The position numbers were made by a program, and so were the translations under genes. A stretch of 5,830 bases of DNA from a virus. Location of the stretch: IMG/VR virus record IMGVR_UViG_3300045988_031704; one strand, 5' to 3'. The notes beneath the pieces were generated by a model that was not told the DNA's origin, ran no database searches, and worked only from the letters and a program-made list of their open reading frames with translations. This document shows, piece after piece, positions 1 through 5,830 of the stretch. Numbering within the stretch: the stretch's first letter is position 1; each line of letters opens with the position of its first letter.

Positions 1-55
1 GGCTTTCCAACATGGTTTCTGAGTACGTCTAGGATAGATACCAGGTAACTATCTA
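1..55. repeat. 55-nt terminal direct repeat, identical to 5776-5830. This is assembly redundancy of a circular genome whose unit length is about 5775 nt.
   Basis: Exact 55/55 identity between 1-55 and 5776-5830 (ggctttccaacatggtttctgagtacgtctaggatagataccaggtaactatcta). The identity ends at both sides. Confidence 0.9.
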
Positions 56-158
56 TAAAAACTACCTGTGACCCGTCCTGGCAAGCGAATTCCTTTACTT
101 TGAAGTGCTGCCCTACTTTTTCGTTTGCGTCTGTGTCCATGATATAGCATTTAATCAT
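1..158 (-). CDS. 5' portion of a Peptidase_M15_3 (VanY / D-Ala-D-Ala carboxypeptidase-like zinc peptidase) gene, a candidate lysis enzyme. The ORF continues across the circular junction into 5544-5775. The start is either ATG 158..156 (MIKCYIMDTD...) or ATG 140..138.
   Basis: Hand translation of the minus strand gives MIKCYIMDTDANEKVGQHFKVKEFACQDGSQVVFIDSYLVSILDVLRNHVGKP..., open to position 1 in the same frame as the ORF entering from 5830. GAGGAA lies 10 nt upstream of ATG 158. The N-terminal region matches the family pattern K-x-EF-x-C-x-DGS ... L ... LR ... G-P. Confidence 0.8.
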   Translation of the reverse strand, partial: MIKCYIMDTDANEKVGQHFKVKEFACQDGSQVVFIDSYLVSILDVLRNHVGK

Positions 159-195
159 TCTTGTCAATTCCTCAAAAATTAAAAATTGAAATACA
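139..195 (-). promoter_or_regulatory. Candidate sigma70 promoter P2: a consensus -35 TTGACA (167..162), then either a 17-nt spacer to TATCAT (144..139) or a 15-nt spacer to TGcTATATC (extended -10, 149..141). It is preceded by an A/T-rich UP-like tract (aatttttaattttt, 168-195).
   Basis: Read directly on the minus strand: aatttttgaggaaTTGACAagaatgattaaatgcTATATCATgg. The predicted start (~132) falls inside the peptidase ORF, so this would be an internal promoter. Confidence 0.4.
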
Positions 196-254
196 CTCTT
201 ACTAAGAACTTGTACTCTTTTATGGCGTTTACCTCTCTTTCTTTTTCTGATTCT

Positions 255-284
255 ATTATACTACTTGTCAATAGGTTTTTTCAA
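255..284 (-). promoter_or_regulatory. Candidate sigma70 promoter P1: TTGAAA (284..279) - 18 nt - TATAAT (260..255), reading toward the peptidase gene.
   Basis: Perfect -10 hexamer and a 5/6 match for the -35. The predicted transcription start near 248 gives a ~90-nt leader to ATG 158. Confidence 0.45.
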
Positions 285-489
285 TGATCTTGCTGTTTTG
301 TAATATATTCGTAACCTTTTTTTGCAACTCGGTTTTGCTCCTTTGTTTTGATGGCGCTTTAGCGCCTTGCCGTGCGTAGCGTATGCGGAGCTCGGCTAAT
401 CCTTTCCTTTTTAGCGCTGTGCGCGTTTTCAACACTTTCAACACTTTCAACAGGTTTTCCACAAAATGTTGCACAATACTTTTCGTCAT
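268..489 (-). CDS. Doubtful 73-aa ORF encoding a very basic protein (...KTRTALKRKGLAELRIRYARQGAKAPSKQRSKTELQKK...). It could be a J/ORF8-like DNA-binding protein. Its N-terminus is encoded by the iteron repeats (LKVLKVLK).
   Basis: ATG 489 has no convincing SD (GAAAG only). The first third of the ORF is the tandem 9-mer array, and the ORF ends inside the P1 promoter. Small Arg/Lys-rich DNA-packaging proteins are known in Microviridae. It may equally be a non-coding iteron region. Confidence 0.25.
   Translation of the reverse strand: MTKSIVQHFVENLLKVLKVLKTRTALKRKGLAELRIRYARQGAKAPSKQRSKTELQKKVTNILQNSKIIEKTY
353..366. repeat. 14-bp perfect palindrome GGCGCTTTAGCGCC. The same arms GGCGCT/AGCGCC recur at 640-645/664-669.
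   Basis: Direct reading. Confidence 0.6.
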
Positions 490-600
490 TTTGACGAACT
501 TTCAACATTTCAACAAGTTTTCAACAAAACTTTCAACATTCTTTTTTGCTTTTTATTTACGCTTTAACGTTAAATTTTAGTACTTTTCAACTTTTCCACA
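428..600. promoter_or_regulatory. Iteron-like array of about 10 copies of TTCAACA and variants at roughly 9-11 bp (one helical turn) spacing. It includes three tandem 9-mers TTCAACACT (428-454) and two TTTTCCACA elements (455-463, 592-600) that each match the relaxed DnaA-box consensus TTWTNCACA perfectly.
   Basis: Perfect TTCAACA at 428, 437, 446, 501, 509, 520 and 532. TTCCACA at 457 and 594, and TTCAAC at 586. All copies are in the same orientation, inside an AT-rich tract. Confidence 0.6.
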
Positions 601-605
601 TTGCC

Positions 606-620
606 TACTACTACTACTAC
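606..620. repeat. (TAC)5 trinucleotide microsatellite.
   Basis: tactactactactac, read directly. Confidence 0.8.
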
Positions 621-676
621 AACAAGTTATATATTATTTGGCGCTTGTGAGCTTGCGAACTATAGCGCCTAAGAGC

Positions 677-719
677 TGCGCGTGCGCGCGTGCGCGCTTC
701 GCGCGCGTGCGTACGCGCA
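677..719. repeat. GC-rich tract of about 43 nt, made of two runs of perfectly alternating purine/pyrimidine bases (677-697 and 700-719). The tract is Z-DNA prone and folds as an imperfect hairpin centred on gcgcgc-ttc-gcgcgc.
   Basis: tgcgcgtgcgcgcgtgcgcgc ttc gcgcgcgtgcgtacgcgca. The core 692-697/701-706 is a perfect 6-bp GC stem, extended by G-T/wobble-tolerant pairs. It is strikingly GC-rich against the AT-rich flanking sequence. Confidence 0.6.
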
Positions 720-738
720 GTAAAGATATATTTACTTG

Positions 739-756
739 ATAGACTGAATAGACTGA
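739..756. repeat. Tandem 9-mer ATAGACTGA x2. The flanking 11-mer TTACTTGATAG (732-742) recurs in the loop of the 780-811 hairpin (791-801).
   Basis: Direct reading: 739-747 and 748-756 are identical, and the 11-mer at 732-742 equals 791-801. Confidence 0.7.
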
Positions 757-779
757 TACATGGAGTCTTTAACGATAAT

Positions 780-811
780 AGCCCAGTACCTTACTTGATA
801 GGTACTGGGCT
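780..811 (-). terminator. Perfect 12-bp stem / 8-nt loop hairpin (agcccagtacct - tacttgat - aggtactgggct) 20 nt downstream of the rep stop. A candidate operon terminator, or a structural element of the replication origin.
   Basis: 780-791 is the exact reverse complement of 800-811. In mRNA sense the hairpin is followed by the moderately U-rich AUUAUCGUUAAAG. Confidence 0.55.
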
Positions 812-823
812 AGGTGACACCAC

Positions 824-840
824 GACACTTTTAAAGTGTC
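824..840. promoter_or_regulatory. 17-nt perfect palindrome gacacttt-t-aaagtgtc overlapping the rep (VP4) stop codon.
   Basis: 824-831 is the reverse complement of 833-840, and the rep stop TAA is at 833..831. Confidence 0.4.
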
Positions 841-1850
841 CCTCTCTTCTTCAGCTGCTTCTTTATTACTCTCTCTTTCGTTTTGCACTGTTCTGCAAAG
901 TCTGTGTTTTCGTACTTTAGTCGGTTTTCTGCGATCACTGCTGCTTGTCTGTTTTGTTTAATTCGCCACAATCTTTGTGGGTTTTCAGCTTCCATCATTT
1001 TTTCATAATAGCGTGGAATTTGTGCGCGTTTGCCGTTTGTGCATTGGATATACCCTTGCTTCCAGATTTTCGCTTTGTGTTCTTGATAGTAGCGATCTCC
1101 TAGGCCTGGTTTAAGGCTCATACATGCAAAAGGTTTTTGCTGTCCTAGATCGTAGTATACGTTTGCTTTTTGACCGTCAATTTCGTACATTTTTTTCGTG
1201 ACGTATCCCGCAACATATCTATAAGTCTCCGGTGCTGCTTGTGCTATCTGTATTTGACCCATGCCCCATAGGTCTTCAAGCCATTTACTTGTGAAATATC
1301 CGTTGTGTTGTATCTTGTACAGGTGCTTTAGATCCGTTGGTCGCCATCCATACAGTATCATATGATAATGCGGCCTTGCTGTCTGTTCTCCGTATTCTCC
1401 CGCCACAAAATAGCGTAATTTGCCCCTGTAAGCCTTTCTGAGGCGTTTTATGAGTTTTTGAACGTCAGTATATAGCAATGTTTGGACGCTTTCAGGGCGC
1501 TTCTCTCCCGGCTTCCAGACGTATTGTACTTTTCGCATGATTTCGCCTGTGTTTACTATCATGCCCGGTACATGATCATCATCATAAGTTAATGTGATAA
1601 ACCAAACTTCCTCTCTTGGATAGTCTCGTGCTTCTAATTCTATTCGTGTTGTCCAGTCCTCCCTCTGTCTGATTCTGCATCCGATACACTGCCCGCATGG
1701 TATCAACATGACATCTTTTCTATACATCAAATCTTCATATTTGAGCTGTTTCCCGCATATTTCAGAAAAGCGGGAGAGTGAATACACCCTCCCGCTAATG
1801 CTTTTATCGTTCGGGTTGTACAGCCTTATTAATGGCTTGTAGCAACTCAT
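831..1850 (-). CDS. VP4 replication initiation protein (rolling-circle Rep of Microviridae), 339 aa.
   Basis: Rolling-circle motifs are present: motif I FITLTY, motif II PHYHMILYG (HxH), motif III YRYVAGYVTKKM (catalytic Y...K). There is an N-terminal Cys cluster CGQCIGC. ATG 1850 overlaps the VP2 stop. Confidence 0.93.
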   Translation of the reverse strand: MSCYKPLIRLYNPNDKSISGRVYSLSRFSEICGKQLKYEDLMYRKDVMLIPCGQCIGCRIRQREDWTTRIELEARDYPREEVWFITLTYDDDHVPGMIVNTGEIMRKVQYVWKPGEKRPESVQTLLYTDVQKLIKRLRKAYRGKLRYFVAGEYGEQTARPHYHMILYGWRPTDLKHLYKIQHNGYFTSKWLEDLWGMGQIQIAQAAPETYRYVAGYVTKKMYEIDGQKANVYYDLGQQKPFACMSLKPGLGDRYYQEHKAKIWKQGYIQCTNGKRAQIPRYYEKMMEAENPQRLWRIKQNRQAAVIAENRLKYENTDFAEQCKTKERVIKKQLKKRGTL

Positions 1851-2710
1851 TTCAAATAATCACCCGGCTTTCGCTTTTCTCCGTAGCTTCCTGTTTTGTC
1901 TTGTGGTTTTATGCTTCTACTTTGTTCTGTGCCTTTTTCCGCCTTTGCTGTTGCATCCGTAATGGCCTTGTTTGTGTTGTTTCCTACTTCTGTAAGTGCC
2001 TTTTGCAGTCCGTATGGTGTCATGTGTGTTGTACTGAGCATTTGCTGCCAGCTTTGCGCAGCATTGTACCAGTCACTTGTACTCCAACTTGAGCTTGAGT
2101 ATGCATTCGGTACAAATCCACCGCTTCTGCTTACCCCTAGCGCGCTGCTGCTTGCAAGTCCCATGCTCGCACCGCTGATTGTTCCTGCTGATCCTCCCGG
2201 CGTGCTTGCTCCACCGTTTGAAAAAGCCAAGATTGGGTTAAGTCCTGCTTTTTTCATATCTTCAACTGCACGCTGGTATGCTGTGCTTGACATGTGTTCT
2301 TGCCATTCACGGTTTGCTAGTGCTTCTGCACTGTTGTAGTTCATTGCTACGCTGTTTTCAATGTGGTTGTATACGCCTTGCATGATTGCTTGTAAGGTGT
2401 TGTAACCCATCTGTTTAAGCATACTCTGACTGTTGTATTTACCTTGCATGGCTGCCTCTTGCCCTTGGTATGCGTATGCTTGCTTTAGCCAGTCGTTTAC
2501 TTGTTGAACGTTTGTGCCTGATTGGCTTCCGCTTTCTGAGTGCCCGCCGCCCTGGCTTATACTTCCGCCCTGGCTTTGGCTGTTACCTTCTTGTCCGTAT
2601 CCGCCAAATGCTCCGGCAATGTTTTTTGCTGCTCCGGCGAATGTTCCGATTGTATTTGCTACGTTTCCTGCTACGTTTAGTGCTGTTAAGAATCCTGATA
2701 ACGCTCCCAT
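1847..2710 (-). CDS. VP2 minor capsid / DNA pilot protein, 287 aa, with Gly/Ser/Gln-rich low-complexity segments.
   Basis: Contains the conserved gokushovirus VP2 core ...SSTAYQRAVEDMKKAGLNPILAF (the AYQRAV-DMK-AGLNP-LA motif). Its low-complexity composition and position between VP1 and VP4 are typical. The stop overlaps the VP4 start (ATGA at 1847-1850). Confidence 0.85.
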   Translation of the reverse strand: MGALSGFLTALNVAGNVANTIGTFAGAAKNIAGAFGGYGQEGNSQSQGGSISQGGGHSESGSQSGTNVQQVNDWLKQAYAYQGQEAAMQGKYNSQSMLKQMGYNTLQAIMQGVYNHIENSVAMNYNSAEALANREWQEHMSSTAYQRAVEDMKKAGLNPILAFSNGGASTPGGSAGTISGASMGLASSSALGVSRSGGFVPNAYSSSSWSTSDWYNAAQSWQQMLSTTHMTPYGLQKALTEVGNNTNKAITDATAKAEKGTEQSRSIKPQDKTGSYGEKRKPGDYLK

Positions 2711-2738
2711 TTAAAAATAGCCCGGATTTCTCCGGGCT
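2711..2738 (-). terminator. Stem-loop between VP1 and VP2: 8-bp stem AGCCCGGA/TCCGGGCT with a GAAA tetraloop in mRNA sense, followed by AUUUUUAA. A candidate leaky intrinsic terminator that could also reposition the VP2 SD next to its start codon.
   Basis: Plus strand 2719-2726 agcccgga pairs perfectly with 2731-2738 tccgggct. A U-rich run separates the stem from the VP2 ATG at 2710. The SD GGAGG (2744..2740) lies immediately 5' of the stem. Confidence 0.55.
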
Positions 2739-2748
2739 TCCTCCTTTC

Positions 2749-4422
2749 TTACAGTTTGTACAGGCCCGGCACACTGTACAGCGGCATCCGCCTTGTGGTT
2801 TTGTTTGCTACGCGGATTGCTCCGAAAAATTGGGGTTCATTTTGCACGATGAGCGTGCGCGCAATTTCGATTTTTCCTTCTTCCATCCAGTCCTGTGACA
2901 GCGTTGGTACGTTTGAATAGTTGTCAGCATAATGCCAGAAGTCCAGCGTTCCTGTTGCGTTGCTTCTCATGAGGCCAGATACCCGGTTTGGCTTCATTCT
3001 GTAGTCTGCCCATGCTTCTTGATACCCGAAGGTTTCTTCATCTGTTGCATTGCCGGTTAACATGATTTCTTTCTTTTTGACAGGCTGCTCGCCTATGTTT
3101 GCAAACTGCGGTACGTAGTAGTCAAGTCTGTCACTTCTGCTCCAGAAGCGTTCAAGTCCTTGCTGATAGCTGCGATTGTGTCGTACACAACATACACCGA
3201 TCACAAAACCGTGCTCTTCAAACGATTTGGCAAAACTGCTTTCATTGATTGGTGTTACTGACATTGCACCAGTTTCACCAATAGGCGTGTCATCTTGGCT
3301 CTGCTGTCCGCTGGTCTGCACGATTTGGTTAATGTTTACATGGTATCTGCCGCCGCCGAGGTATTCCGGCACCTGTACGGTTTTATCACTGATAACCACG
3401 TCCCATAGTGCTTGTACCTGTTCGCGGTAACGAGTGCCGCCGCGTGCCAGTGCCTCATAGTACTGCTGCACTGCTACGGCCTTTCGTAAGTCGTTGATGG
3501 TTGCTGCTGCTACACTGCTAAGGTCTGCACCTAGGTATACTACATTATGTGTCGTGTCAGTATCGTCTCCGATGGCTAAGTATGCTGATCCGGTGTTTCC
3601 ATCTTCCGCGATTGCATACAGTCTGTCCTTGACGTTGCTCGGGTTTGTGCTTCCGTCAAAAAAGCTGTTTGCATATAGTGGTGCTTTTTCGTTAAATTTA
3701 TCGTTTGTGTATCCGGAAATTCTTGCATTGCCTTGCATTGGCAGCGTAACTTCCGGCCCGCGCTGAGGCTGCGGCAGACAGCTTGTGAAGTAGTCATGGA
3801 ACTTGTTTACCGGCAACAGATTTCCGCCTTTGTACGCGTTGTTGTCTGCTTCTTGCACCCAAGTTTCATTTCCAAATTCGTACAACACGTTGCTATCGTC
3901 TGTTTTTAGCACTGCTTCGTTATTTACGTTTTCGTCTCTGAAAAATTCATTCCAGATTTTTACGTACGCTCTCACGGGCAGTGCGTTAATCGTAAACGAT
4001 TTTTTGATCTTGGTTGGTACTCCCATATAGTCTAGTATGGATCTTTCGTCTGGTTTTGGTTTGCTATCCGTTCCGTTGATTACGATTTTTGGCGTTGCGT
4101 ATTCTTTTTTTGGCATCCATGGTGTTGCTTCTACTTCTCCCATGAAGTGCTTAAAGTTGTCCCACAGAATTCTATTAGGACAGTAGAAGTAGTAGAAGTC
4201 AATGAATGCATCATCCATTACCGGGTACTTCGGTGTGCTCATGCGGATAATAGCTGAAGTATTCACGCTGAAGGTATCGCCCGGTAATACCTCGTCAACA
4301 TAAAATGGAATCAGCTTGCCAGAATCGAATGTTGTTAAGATCGTCTGGTCTCGGTTAAACCGCGTCCGGCTTGCTTTCATTTCCGGGATTTCATTAAAGT
4401 GTCTTTCATTGTTTCTATTCAC
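2749..4422 (-). CDS. Major capsid protein VP1 (Microviridae F-protein family), 557 aa from GTG 4422, or 543 aa if ATG 4380 is used.
   Basis: The N-terminal region ...MKASRTRFNRDQTILTTFDSGKLIPFYVDEVLPGDTF is the canonical gokushovirus VP1 start (RxRF...TTFDxGxLIPxxVDEVLPGDTF). The size is typical of Gokushovirinae VP1. GTG 4422 overlaps the upstream stop (GTGA) with AGGAGG 7 nt upstream. The first in-frame ATG is at 4380. Confidence 0.95.
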   Translation of the reverse strand: MNRNNERHFNEIPEMKASRTRFNRDQTILTTFDSGKLIPFYVDEVLPGDTFSVNTSAIIRMSTPKYPVMDDAFIDFYYFYCPNRILWDNFKHFMGEVEATPWMPKKEYATPKIVINGTDSKPKPDERSILDYMGVPTKIKKSFTINALPVRAYVKIWNEFFRDENVNNEAVLKTDDSNVLYEFGNETWVQEADNNAYKGGNLLPVNKFHDYFTSCLPQPQRGPEVTLPMQGNARISGYTNDKFNEKAPLYANSFFDGSTNPSNVKDRLYAIAEDGNTGSAYLAIGDDTDTTHNVVYLGADLSSVAAATINDLRKAVAVQQYYEALARGGTRYREQVQALWDVVISDKTVQVPEYLGGGRYHVNINQIVQTSGQQSQDDTPIGETGAMSVTPINESSFAKSFEEHGFVIGVCCVRHNRSYQQGLERFWSRSDRLDYYVPQFANIGEQPVKKKEIMLTGNATDEETFGYQEAWADYRMKPNRVSGLMRSNATGTLDFWHYADNYSNVPTLSQDWMEEGKIEIARTLIVQNEPQFFGAIRVANKTTRRMPLYSVPGLYKL

Positions 4423-4817
4423 TTTTCCTCCTCCTTTGTTTCAGGTTCTGCCGCTGGTTTTTCTGCTGCCTTTTTTTGCAGCTCCTCTAGTTTCATGGCG
4501 TTTACCTGTGCGGTCGCCACCATGCGGTGATACTCATGGATGTTTTGCGGGAATTCCGTAATATCCGTGTATGTACCGTTTAATGCTCCTTCTGACAGGC
4601 TATTTAGAAACTGCGGGTCAAAACTTGCTTTTCGGACAATGTTTTTGATATCACATTCATCCGCATAGCTTTCAATCTCCTGTTGGATATCGATTGGTGC
4701 AGTTTCTTGTAGTGTTTCTTCTCCTTTTTCGTCCTTCGTCCAAACGTACTGTTTTCGAAGTTTTTCTCCTGATTTAGAAAAGAAGGGCTCTCGCCCTTCT
4801 TCGTATCGTTTATTCAT
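4419..4817 (-). CDS. Acidic 132-aa protein, a candidate internal scaffolding protein (VP3-like) of Microviridae.
   Basis: SD GGGAGGG lies 8 nt upstream of ATG 4817. The protein is highly acidic with a C-terminal KKAAEKPAAEPETKEEEK tail, and sits immediately upstream of and overlapping VP1, as VP3 does in gokushoviruses. The assignment rests on size, charge and synteny rather than a recognised motif. Confidence 0.5.
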   Translation of the reverse strand: MNKRYEEGREPFFSKSGEKLRKQYVWTKDEKGEETLQETAPIDIQQEIESYADECDIKNIVRKASFDPQFLNSLSEGALNGTYTDITEFPQNIHEYHRMVATAQVNAMKLEELQKKAAEKPAAEPETKEEEK

Positions 4818-5049
4818 GCGGTTTGCCCTCCCATACCTTCTCCTTGCCGTTCGTGAACGTGCCTAGCTCGTCTTCAAACACTGCCAGCTTATAGCCGGTG
4901 TAGTCGCCGGGCCCCTGCCCAACAAACGTTTTTTCATCCTTCGCCATTACGTTGCACATACGTGCAAAGGTTGCACTATTCTTGCTCTCGCCTACCCATG
5001 CATAGCACTTTGCTACGTCATCCCATAGGCCAAAATATTCATGCTTCAT
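4810..5049 (-). CDS. Hypothetical protein of 79 aa (82 aa if GTG 5058 is used). It is a candidate VP5-like protein by position alone, immediately upstream of the VP3-like gene as in gokushovirus gene order.
   Basis: ORF MKHEYFGLWDDVAKCYAWVGESKNSATFARMCNVMAKDEKTFVGQGPGDYTGYKLAVFEDELGTFTNGKEKVWEGKPHE. Its stop overlaps the next gene's start (ATGAATAA at 4810-4817). A purine-rich AAAGGAAAGTGGA lies upstream. I do not recognise any sequence-level homology. Confidence 0.4.
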   Translation of the reverse strand: MKHEYFGLWDDVAKCYAWVGESKNSATFARMCNVMAKDEKTFVGQGPGDYTGYKLAVFEDELGTFTNGKEKVWEGKPHE

Positions 5050-5147
5050 GATATCCACTTTCCTTTCTTTTACAGCCGGATGCCGCCGCGCATAGGCTTT
5101 TGACTGAGGTTGATGGTTTTGGTTTTTCGTGCGGTTACGTTGAACAC

Positions 5148-5167
5148 GCGGCGGTCTTTTGCGCCGC
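5148..5167 (-). other. GC hairpin (gcggcg - 8-nt loop - cgccgc) 8 nt downstream of the 74-aa ORF stop, inside the 117-nt gap 5059-5175. A possible RNA stability or processing element.
   Basis: 5148-5153 pairs with 5162-5167. No U-tract follows in mRNA sense. Confidence 0.35.
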
Positions 5168-5175
5168 TCATTACT

Positions 5176-5400
5176 TTACGATGTCGTCCCATTGTTGTAC
5201 TCCCTTCTCATCAGTTCTATCTCGATTTCGTTTACAAAGCTTTTTATTTGCCAAATTTCGTTTACCAGCTTTTTGGCATCGTCTATGTTTGACACTTTTC
5301 TAAGCATTTTGTAATTGGCATTAATTTCTTTGTATTTTTGTGTGAGTATTCCTTCCAATGCTTCTTTGGGCTGGTCACGTACATTCCATGCTTTCATCAT
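5176..5400 (-). CDS. Hypothetical protein of about 74 aa (MMKAWNVRDQPKEALEGILTQKYKEINANYKMLRKVSNIDDAKKLVNEIWQIKSFVNEIEIELMRREYNNGTTS). The track extends it to a GTG at 5418.
   Basis: Perfect SD AAGGAG lies 9 nt upstream of ATG 5400 (gtgAAGGAGaatagccgaATGATG). The track's GTG at 5418 sits upstream of that SD, so ATG 5400 is the preferred start. The ORF is in the operon orientation. Confidence 0.45.
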   Translation of the reverse strand: MMKAWNVRDQPKEALEGILTQKYKEINANYKMLRKVSNIDDAKKLVNEIWQIKSFVNEIEIELMRREYNNGTTS

Positions 5401-5436
5401 TCGGCTATTCTCCTTCACAGGTCATTCGTCATTCAT

Positions 5437-5541
5437 TCACTGCTTGTCGTGCAGCACATGATAGATCATGTCCAGCTTTTCCAAGATCTCTCTCATAACT
5501 GCAACTGCAGCTTTGAGGTCTTTAATGCTGATAAGTGCCAT
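5437..5541 (-). CDS. Small hypothetical protein of 34 aa (MALISIKDLKAAVAVMREILEKLDMIYHVLHDKQ), predicted helical. It lies directly downstream of the peptidase and is likely translationally coupled to it.
   Basis: ATG 5541..5539 is preceded by AGGGGA at 7-nt spacing (aaaggggatgtaaaaATG). That Shine-Dalgarno (SD) lies inside the last codons of the peptidase, whose stop TAA is 2 nt before the ATG. The ORF is too short for the track threshold. Confidence 0.35.
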   Translation of the reverse strand: MALISIKDLKAAVAVMREILEKLDMIYHVLHDKQ

Positions 5542-5543
5542 TT

Positions 5544-5830
5544 TTACATCCCCTTTCTGTATTTTTTGGTGCGTGTGTCGATGTGTACCCACGTATTATA
5601 CACGATTATGCCGCATTCATCCGGAATTATTTTGTTCAGTTTGTTGGCGATTTCTTTTGCGGTCATGCCATTAACCCGGATATCTGCTGCCATTCCTCGC
5701 ATATGGTATGAGTACTTTGCACCGCCTACTGCTTTATTCCTTGTTGGTGTCCGGTATCCGCTGTTGATGATTACAGGCTTTCCAACATGGTTTCTGAGTA
5801 CGTCTAGGATAGATACCAGGTAACTATCTA
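5544..5830 (-). CDS. 3' portion of the same Peptidase_M15_3 gene. It carries the zinc-ligand motifs, and its stop TAA is at 5546..5544. Positions 5776-5830 duplicate 1-55.
   Basis: Minus-strand translation reads ...VIINSGYRTPTRNKAVGGAKYSYHMRGMAADIRVNGMTAKEIANKLNKIIPDECGIIVYNTWVHIDTRTKKYRKGM*. The SGYR...N..VGG...S.H..G.AADI ... VHID signature matches the H-x6-D ... H zinc site of the M15 (VanY-type) family. The full protein would be about 123-129 aa. Confidence 0.85.
   Translation of the reverse strand, partial: DSYLVSILDVLRNHVGKPVIINSGYRTPTRNKAVGGAKYSYHMRGMAADIRVNGMTAKEIANKLNKIIPDECGIIVYNTWVHIDTRTKKYRKGM
5776..5830. repeat. Second copy of the 55-nt terminal redundancy (circular junction).
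   Basis: Identical to 1-55. Confidence 0.9.

Follow-up and report, generated by a model that had tools for sequence, protein, structure and literature searches.

The sequence studied was the IMG/VR record IMGVR_UViG_3300045988_031704, a viral DNA of 5,830 nucleotides (nt; positions 1–5,830, hereafter the window), and the element in question was an open reading frame (ORF) interrupted by the ends of this record. The two ends shared an exact 55-nt repeat, and the ORF left the window at position 1 on the minus strand and continued at the opposite end. All genes were located on the minus strand, and Pfam and PHROG profile matches identified the gokushovirus set of VP1, VP2, VP3, VP4/Rep, and VP5. 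The junction gene, which encoded a protein of the Peptidase_M15_3 family, was separated from Rep by a non-coding region of ~660 nt (roughly 170–830), and a perfect hairpin was located at the Rep end of this region. The window was very probably a linearised copy of a 5,775-nt human-gut gokushovirus genome, in which the junction gene encoded a single-domain M15_3 zinc peptidase, most likely an endolysin.

Circular genome and the gene across its junction

The exact match between positions 1–55 and 5776–5830 was the longest between the two ends, with differing bases on its flanks, and a 55-nt end match has a chance probability of ~4^-55. The exact match with differing flanks therefore gave a circle of 5,775 nt, as an earlier note on this DNA had concluded from the same redundancy. 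The first copy (1–55) was regarded as the assembly overlap that marks a circular template, and the second copy (5776–5830) was trimmed to obtain the circle.

A terminal repeat alone does not discriminate between a circle and a terminally redundant linear genome. The 55-nt match might reflect a linear molecule with true direct terminal repeats or an artefactual joining of unrelated ends, and the junction ORF would then not be contiguous. Three ENA contigs, found by an exact look-up of the Rep protein of the window and then compared with the window, argued against both alternatives. Contig L010 (ERZ918304, human gut metagenome, MEGAHIT k127) was 5,902 nt long, including a 127-nt terminal repeat whose removal left 5,775 nt, and was 100% identical to the window, with its break inside VP1. 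Contig L011 (ERZ827408, SPAdes NODE_8328; 5,830 nt) was also 100% identical and was broken in the non-coding region, where its 55-nt repeat corresponded to window positions 318–372. Contig L012 (ERZ27256504, k119_141898; 5,795 nt) contained no terminal repeat, was 99.93% identical, and was broken near window position 5669, inside the peptidase gene. The join of position 5775 to position 1 was uninterrupted internal sequence in all three contigs, which came from other samples and assemblers, contained the join at 99.9–100% identity and, in L010 and L011, had their own k-mer-sized overlaps elsewhere.

The DNA alignment across the join was also unbroken and free of gaps in nine GenBank relatives, and the ORF read through the join yielded a full-length Pfam domain (profile positions 2–108 of 108). 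Furthermore, the IMG/VR contigs of close relatives (n = 80) ended in repeats of 55 nt (16 contigs), 99 nt (13 contigs), 119 nt, 141 nt, and similar lengths, which we take to be typical assembler k-mer sizes. Because the repeats of the relatives were k-mer-sized, the 55-nt repeat was considered to mark a circular template assembled by a de Bruijn method. The repeat is best read as an overlap left by a de Bruijn assembler and not as a biological terminal repeat, and a linear molecule or an artefactual join was extremely unlikely. The assembler would have left a 55-nt k-mer overlap and, by chance, cut the circle inside a gene. An exact 75-mer spanning the junction had no match in IMG/VR.

The same 5,775-nt circle was thus held by four differently broken assemblies, and its length lay within the range of small circular genomes (~4.4–6.1 kb). 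The circular relatives (5.2–6.1 kb) shared the gene order VP4, long non-coding region, peptidase, small ORFs, VP5, VP3, VP1, and VP2, and the order in the closed window was identical. The description of the window in the earlier note as a complete circular microvirus genome was borne out by the different breakpoints, the gokushovirus gene set, and this shared order.

When one repeat copy was trimmed, the sequence was circularised, and ORFs were called again, a minus-strand ORF covering positions 5544–5775 joined to 1–167 was recovered. Its possible starts were TTG at 167 (132 amino acids, aa), ATG at 158 (129 aa), and ATG at 140 (123 aa), and the earlier note had placed the two ATG starts, the stop at 5544, and the corresponding lengths correctly. 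The frame was continuous when position 1 was joined to position 5775 after the trimming proposed in that note, whereas a direct join of position 1 to position 5830 added 55 nt and broke it. The linear ORF list contained only a 52-aa piece at 5544–5702, since ORFs running off an end were not listed, in agreement with the claim that a linear scan misses this gene. The 129-aa gene was called by gene callers in L010 and L011, so identical contigs with the junction gene annotated already existed in public assemblies. The junction finding was therefore correct but ordinary, an artefact of a linear ORF scan and not a discovery. Its lesson is one of annotation, namely that circular viral contigs need closing before gene calling. 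In the window, the contig ends divided the only non-core gene, a putative lysin, and at least one further public contig was broken in the same gene; in L012, the peptidase gene was split between the contig ends, and gene calling gave no more than pieces of 47 and 88 aa.

The 5′ part of the gene (1–158, minus strand) began with ATG at 158–156, which was preceded by GAGGA 10 nt upstream, and encoded approximately residues 1–53 of the 129-aa protein. The 3′ part (5544–5775, minus strand) contained an SxHxxGxAxD motif (His77 and Asp84), a WVHxD motif (His117), and the TAA stop at 5546–5544. ATG 158 was assigned as the start because eight of the nine GenBank relatives had an ATG at the same codon together with a GAGG-like upstream site.

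The junction protein matched Peptidase_M15_3 (PF08291) with an E value of 6e-25 and 87.9 bits, against a cut-off of 23.2, and its residues 18–119 covered profile positions 2–108 of 108. The best PHROG match was phrog_894, annotated as 'endolysin', with an E value of 2e-44. The protein was accordingly classified by its profile as a Peptidase_M15_3 member (clan Peptidase_MD, LAS-type zinc peptidases). Sequence searching recovered a single solved structure, the zinc DD-peptidase of Streptomyces albus G (PDB code 1LBU; MEROPS M15A), with an E value of 9e-6. The segment SYHMRGMAADI was aligned with SRHMYGHAADL of 1LBU, which placed His77 on His154 and Asp84 on Asp161, and both residues of 1LBU are taken here to be zinc ligands. 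Residue His117 of the WVHxD motif is presumably the third metal ligand of the family. All three residues, His77, Asp84, and His117, were invariant in 30 homologues. The two proteins shared the SxHxxGxAxD block with two metal ligands, and 1LBU was also the top structural match. However, 1LBU is larger (213 residues) and carries an additional wall-binding domain at its N-terminus, only ~46 residues were aligned with the window peptidase, and the third-ligand region, WVHxD in the window, lay outside the alignment.

The peptidase gene was internal in all nine GenBank relatives, with a protein identity of 61–90%, and several copies were annotated 'peptidase M15' or 'similar to peptidase'. When the gene was compared with that of the closest GenBank relative, the differences at codon positions 1, 2, and 3 numbered 10, 4, and 40, and the codon changes comprised 34 synonymous and 13 non-synonymous changes, a pattern that indicates strong purifying selection. 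The Pfam domain, the internal homologues, and this codon-position bias together supported the view that a real gene crosses the junction. A large protein database contained more than 1,500 homologues; the top 120 were 85–95% identical, nearly all had 129 aa, and many were encoded on contigs of ~5.4–6.0 kb. The gene was on the Rep strand in 76 of the 80 close IMG/VR relatives, and the four contigs with no match were all short and may be incomplete.

The plus strand also contained an ORF across the join (5338–5775 joined to 1–48), encoding 161 aa with hydrophobic stretches, which might be read as an overlapping membrane or lysis gene. In tblastn searches of the relatives, this ORF was open over 92–152 aa, and one ORF on the complementary strand beside a peptidase gene has been reported in one genome (Roux et al. 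2012, PMC3394797). However, the T-rich plus strand also gave hydrophobic ORFs of 142–161 aa opposite VP2 and VP1, so such a length was background. Its apparent conservation was accounted for by the conserved peptidase on the other strand, and the substitution pattern fitted the peptidase frame. The antisense ORF was rejected as a background of base composition, and a real gene at this position was very unlikely.

Peptidase and its proposed role in lysis

The peptidase was the first gene past the long non-coding region and was located upstream of the structural genes. Its nearest matches outside the microviruses, in the phage collection searched, were in the Faecalibacterium phages Lelie and Toutatis (46% identity), in which the overlapping feature was annotated as peptidase or endolysin. 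M15_3 peptidases have been described in five human-associated gokushoviruses, four of them affiliated to Faecalibacterium prausnitzii, with a proposed horizontal gain and endolysin role, and related bacterial and prophage copies adjoin holin genes (Roux et al. 2012, PMC3394797). The window peptidase agreed with those proteins (PLoS One 7:e40418) in family (PF08291), virus group, habitat, and proposed origin and role, and nothing substantial differed, the window gene being merely hidden by the contig cut. The gene family has thus been on record in gut gokushoviruses since 2012, and it hints at hosts among the Clostridia. M15 peptidases have been reported as likely lysis genes in other microvirus groups as well (PMC11499846, PMC9865509).

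The peptidase was most likely an endolysin. The data showed the circle, the gene, its family and conservation, and the conserved metal-ligand residues, and the lytic role, substrate bond, and route to the wall are inferred. The enzyme would cut peptidoglycan peptides late in infection and help the release of progeny, and would replace the single-gene lysis protein of phiX174-type phages. Horizontal transfer from tailed phages of Clostridia is the probable origin of the gene. Protein E of phiX174 likewise serves progeny release, but it is a small membrane inhibitor of wall synthesis whose gene is overprinted within gene D, whereas the window virus would use a separate, horizontally acquired hydrolase and had no E-like hydrophobic ORF on the coding strand.

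Several observations weighed against the endolysin assignment. None of the coding-strand ORFs of at least 25 aa contained a 19-residue window with the holin-like mean hydropathy of at least 1.6, and no signal or anchor sequence was found on the peptidase, whose N-terminus, MIKCYIMDTDANEK, was not hydrophobic. The lack of a holin-like ORF and of a signal or anchor therefore left the route of the enzyme to the wall unexplained, and the predicted ORFs did not form a canonical holin–endolysin cassette. In the literature found, no lytic activity was reported for any microvirus M15 peptidase. Scans of bacterial genomes with VP1 and with the peptidase alignment gave no matches. The AlphaFold model of the peptidase, obtained from a shallow alignment, had a mean predicted local distance difference test (pLDDT) score of 64. 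The top Foldseek match of this moderate-confidence model, 1LBU, was weak (E value of 0.044, template modelling score of 0.40), and no match was obtained at an E value of 0.001 or below.

The peptidase might also be real without being a lysis enzyme, acting instead in wall opening at entry or in wall remodelling for the benefit of the host, or being carried as a passenger gene. The absence of an accompanying holin or export signal would suit such roles, as would the four of 80 close relatives mentioned above and the complete absence of the gene from some microvirus groups (PMC11499846). A passenger gene was difficult to reconcile with the strong purifying selection and the near-universal presence in the clade. 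The endolysin annotation of the best PHROG family and of the homologues in tailed Faecalibacterium phages, together with the holin genes reported beside related copies in bacteria and prophages (Roux et al. 2012, PMC3394797), favoured lysis, and a role other than lysis was considered unlikely.

Two promoter-like matches were located near the gene. The first, TTGAAA-18-TATAAT (11/12; 255–284, minus strand), was sigma-70-like by consensus only and ~100 nt upstream of the peptidase start, and the total count of such matches was no higher than in shuffled sequences. The second, TTGACA-17-TATCAT (11/12; 139–167, minus strand), overlapped the start region. TTGACA just 5′ of the peptidase ATG was found in most of the nine relatives, and this recurrence may represent a spacer constraint or an internal promoter.

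Origin-like hairpin and strand polarity

The hairpin at positions 779–812 of the plus strand was located directly after the Rep stop and consisted of a perfect 13-bp (base pair) stem and an 8-nt loop (792–799). The loop, TACTTGAT, was on the strand opposite all genes. Of 11 aligned genomes, 10 shared the hairpin and loop, and the stem showed one compensatory change. Positions 793–800, ACTTGATA (ACTTG/ATA), corresponded to the core of the phiX174 viral-strand origin, CAACTTG/ATATT, annotated at 4306 in NC_001422. In phiX174 this origin, CAACTTG/ATATTAATAAC, lies in gene A, and the ACTTG/ATA core was common to both. The Rep motifs HYHMIL and YVAGYVTKK of the window were similar to HFHAVH and YVAKYVNKK of phiX174 gpA, and the two-tyrosine motif was almost identical. 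The hairpin was treated as a candidate Rep nick site or origin. A second copy of TTACTTGATAG was present at 732–742.

The coding strand of Chp2 and of many environmental gokushoviruses carried a hairpin whose loop was (T/C)ACTTGAT; in Chp2, a cultured gokushovirus, it was an intergenic 14-bp hairpin with the loop TCTACTTGAT. The orientation was surveyed in IMG/VR genomes oriented by their genes, counting perfect stems of 8 bp or more except where noted. In a first set of 80 diverse gokushoviruses, retrieved by an alignment headed by Chp2 VP1, the loop was on the coding strand in 49 genomes and on the opposite strand in one (L151), and no hairpin was found in 30; with a 7-bp stem cut-off, the coding-strand count of this set was 52–53. 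The corresponding counts in 78 further diverse genomes were 29, one, and 48. Across both sets, about 80 of 158 diverse gokushoviruses had the coding-strand form, the orientation that the motif also has in phiX174. When the 80 close relatives of the window were surveyed in the same manner, the loop was opposite the genes in 71 cases and on the coding strand in one (the probably chimeric contig L025), and no hairpin was found in 11 genomes. When one stem mismatch was allowed, all 80 genomes had the loop on the opposite strand and none was missing, with the same L025 hairpin as the only one on the coding strand. Among GenBank genomes, the coding-strand form was present in Dulem virus 195 and the inverted form in MG945781 and KX513877.

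Contig L025 (IMGVR_UViG_3300045988_007630; 10,917 nt, ~2× genome length) combined a coding-strand hairpin, GCGGTATATA/TACTTGAT/TATATACCGC, with an inverted one like that of the window, and probably joins two different microviruses as a chimera or concatenation. L151 (IMGVR_UViG_3300026518_000187; 4,394 nt) was a distant, small environmental gokushovirus with an ACTTGAT-loop hairpin opposite its genes. It was regarded as a singleton, since its nearest sampled relatives were not inverted.

T-richness of the packaged strand is a known mutational signature in single-stranded DNA phages, and base composition was measured at four-fold degenerate sites of the coding strand, using for the window the minus-strand ORFs of at least 150 codons. 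The window had 51% A and 13% T at these sites, with a TA skew of −0.60, and the mean skew of its 80 close relatives was −0.61. In comparison, phiX174 had 7% A and 61% T, Chp2 had 25% A and 51% T (skew of +0.35), and Dulem virus 195 had 9% A and 55% T (skew of +0.71). L151, at −0.76, had the most extreme skew of its set. The T-rich strand of the window was the non-coding strand, and this mirrored skew fits a non-coding strand that would be exposed as single-stranded DNA.

During rolling-circle replication, phiX174 displaces and packages the strand that is nicked. If the loop is the nick site, the strand nicked by Rep of the window virus, and then displaced and packaged, would be the complement of the mRNA-sense strand. 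To our knowledge, the Microviridae are described as uniformly positive-sense. It is possible, and is put forward here tentatively, that the origin hairpin of this clade is inverted relative to the genes and that the virions are negative-sense, with the antisense strand packaged. This possibility was favoured by the phiX174 nick core in a loop on the non-coding strand of the window virus and all 80 close relatives, by the coding-strand position of the loop in the diverse gokushoviruses, by the similarity of the Rep catalytic motif to that of phiX174 gpA, and by the mirrored four-fold T-richness.

Genome L148, which had a coding-strand hairpin and a skew of −0.62, argued against negative-sense packaging, and four other genomes with coding-strand hairpins had skews of −0.40 to −0.46. 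The whole-genome AT skew was rejected as a test of the virion strand, being weakly discriminating; phiMH2K and a few genomes with coding-strand hairpins were A-rich by this measure. The skew at four-fold sites was clearer, with L148 as the one counter-example. The hairpin could alternatively be a transcription terminator after Rep; read on the gene strand, it scored as terminator-like and had a weak T-run. It could also be an element that works in double-stranded form irrespective of orientation. A chance resemblance to the phiX174 nick site was unlikely, given that the loop was conserved family-wide.

Neither an origin hairpin of gokushoviruses nor a negative-sense microvirus was found described in the literature searched, which had most subscription journals outside its scope, and the novelty of the arrangement was not established. 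The orientation of the hairpin, a side observation, may matter more than the junction gene. If this abundant gut clade does package the antisense strand, the polarity given for the family in textbooks would have to be corrected, with consequences for strand-specific virome methods, and a simple sequence rule would be available for predicting the virion strand of uncultured microviruses.

The remainder of the non-coding region contained further repeats. Seven exact copies of TTTCAACA (TGTTGAAA on the gene strand), with 0.39 expected, formed an iteron-like cluster at 427–538 (plus strand), arranged in two groups with a spacing of 8–12 nt within each. The motif was clustered in all nine GenBank relatives, where no reading frame was conserved, and Rep or a host factor may bind these repeats. 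In KX513876, KX513864, and KT264784, the cluster was in the other orientation and located between VP2 and VP4. Two TTTTCCACA sites (455–463 and 591–599) resembled DnaA boxes and fitted their relaxed consensus. A GC-rich imperfect palindrome with GCGCGTGCGCGC-type repeats (676–720) had 21-nt arms with 86% complementarity, and a similar GC-rich tract was kept in the relatives, whereas the surrounding non-coding region was AT-rich. As single-stranded DNA, the region 620–830, which includes the palindrome and the 779–812 hairpin, folded far better than shuffled sequences (z = −7.1). ORFs within 170–830 were rejected as genes, since their matches occurred in several frames, on both strands, and in the closest genomes only, which indicated conservation of DNA and not of coding. 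An Rfam search gave one sub-threshold chance match only.

Other genes and relation to known gokushoviruses

VP4/Rep (831–1850, minus strand; 339 aa), the rolling-circle replication initiator, matched PF23343 and phrog_942 and contained the HUH motif HYHMIL and the two-tyrosine motif YVAGYVTKK. The DNA pilot protein VP2 (1847–2710, minus strand; 287 aa) matched phrog_8742 with an E value of 2e-126. The major capsid protein VP1 (2749–4422, minus strand; 557 aa) matched Phage_F (PF02305; E value of 1e-136, profile positions 2–501 of 501) and phrog_514 (E value of 1e-200). The internal scaffolding protein VP3 (4419–4817, minus strand; 132 aa) matched Chlamy_scaf (PF09675; E value of 2e-12) and phrog_24309 (E value of 2.5e-70). 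The VP5-like protein (4810–5049, minus strand; 79 aa from ATG) matched Phage_ORF5 (PF20577) and phrog_1670, and was also called with 79 aa in the ENA contigs. None of the window ORFs matched the families of the phiX-type external scaffold D or spike G in the Pfam and PHROG searches. By its Phage_F VP1, its HUH two-tyrosine Rep, and its VP2, VP3, and VP5 accessory genes, the virus was assigned to the Gokushovirinae.

The nearest GenBank genomes were the human-gut gokushoviruses KX513868 and KT264791, with 84–85% nucleotide identity, and pig and monkey faecal microviruses were also close. The group comprised KX513868 and KX513876 ('Human gut gokushovirus'), KT264791 and KT264793 ('Gokushovirus WZ-2015a'), Microviridae from pig faeces (MG9453xx–MG9457xx), and MZ821031. 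These genomes had the common gene order and the 5.2–6.1 kb length, and they shared with the window the peptidase at 61–90% identity, the iteron-like TGTTGAAA clusters and, in most, the post-VP4 hairpin. They differed from the window in that their nucleotide identity was at most ~85%; the genome was therefore distinct from those in GenBank, and the virus group was already known.

A terminator-like hairpin followed by ATTTTT was located between VP1 and VP2 (2719–2738, minus strand; 8 bp, six of them G–C), which suggests that transcription would be attenuated after the capsid gene. Three small conserved ORFs were located between VP5 and the peptidase. An arginine-rich protein (5070–5192, minus strand; 40 aa) matched phrog_10695 with an E value of 6e-10, was 85–97% identical in relatives, and was probably a small internal DNA-binding protein like VP8 or protein J. 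An adjoining ORF (5176–5400, minus strand) was called as a 74-aa gene in L010, L011, and L012 and was 53–73% identical in eight of the nine relatives. The third ORF (MALISIKDL...; 5437–5541, minus strand; 34 aa) was conserved by tblastn in all nine relatives, was not hydrophobic, and matched no family. It was located 2 nt past the peptidase stop and was preceded by a strong AGGGGA site, an arrangement that suggests translational coupling to the peptidase, and its product could be a lysis accessory. In L014, an equivalent ORF of 40 aa was called directly 3′ of the peptidase.

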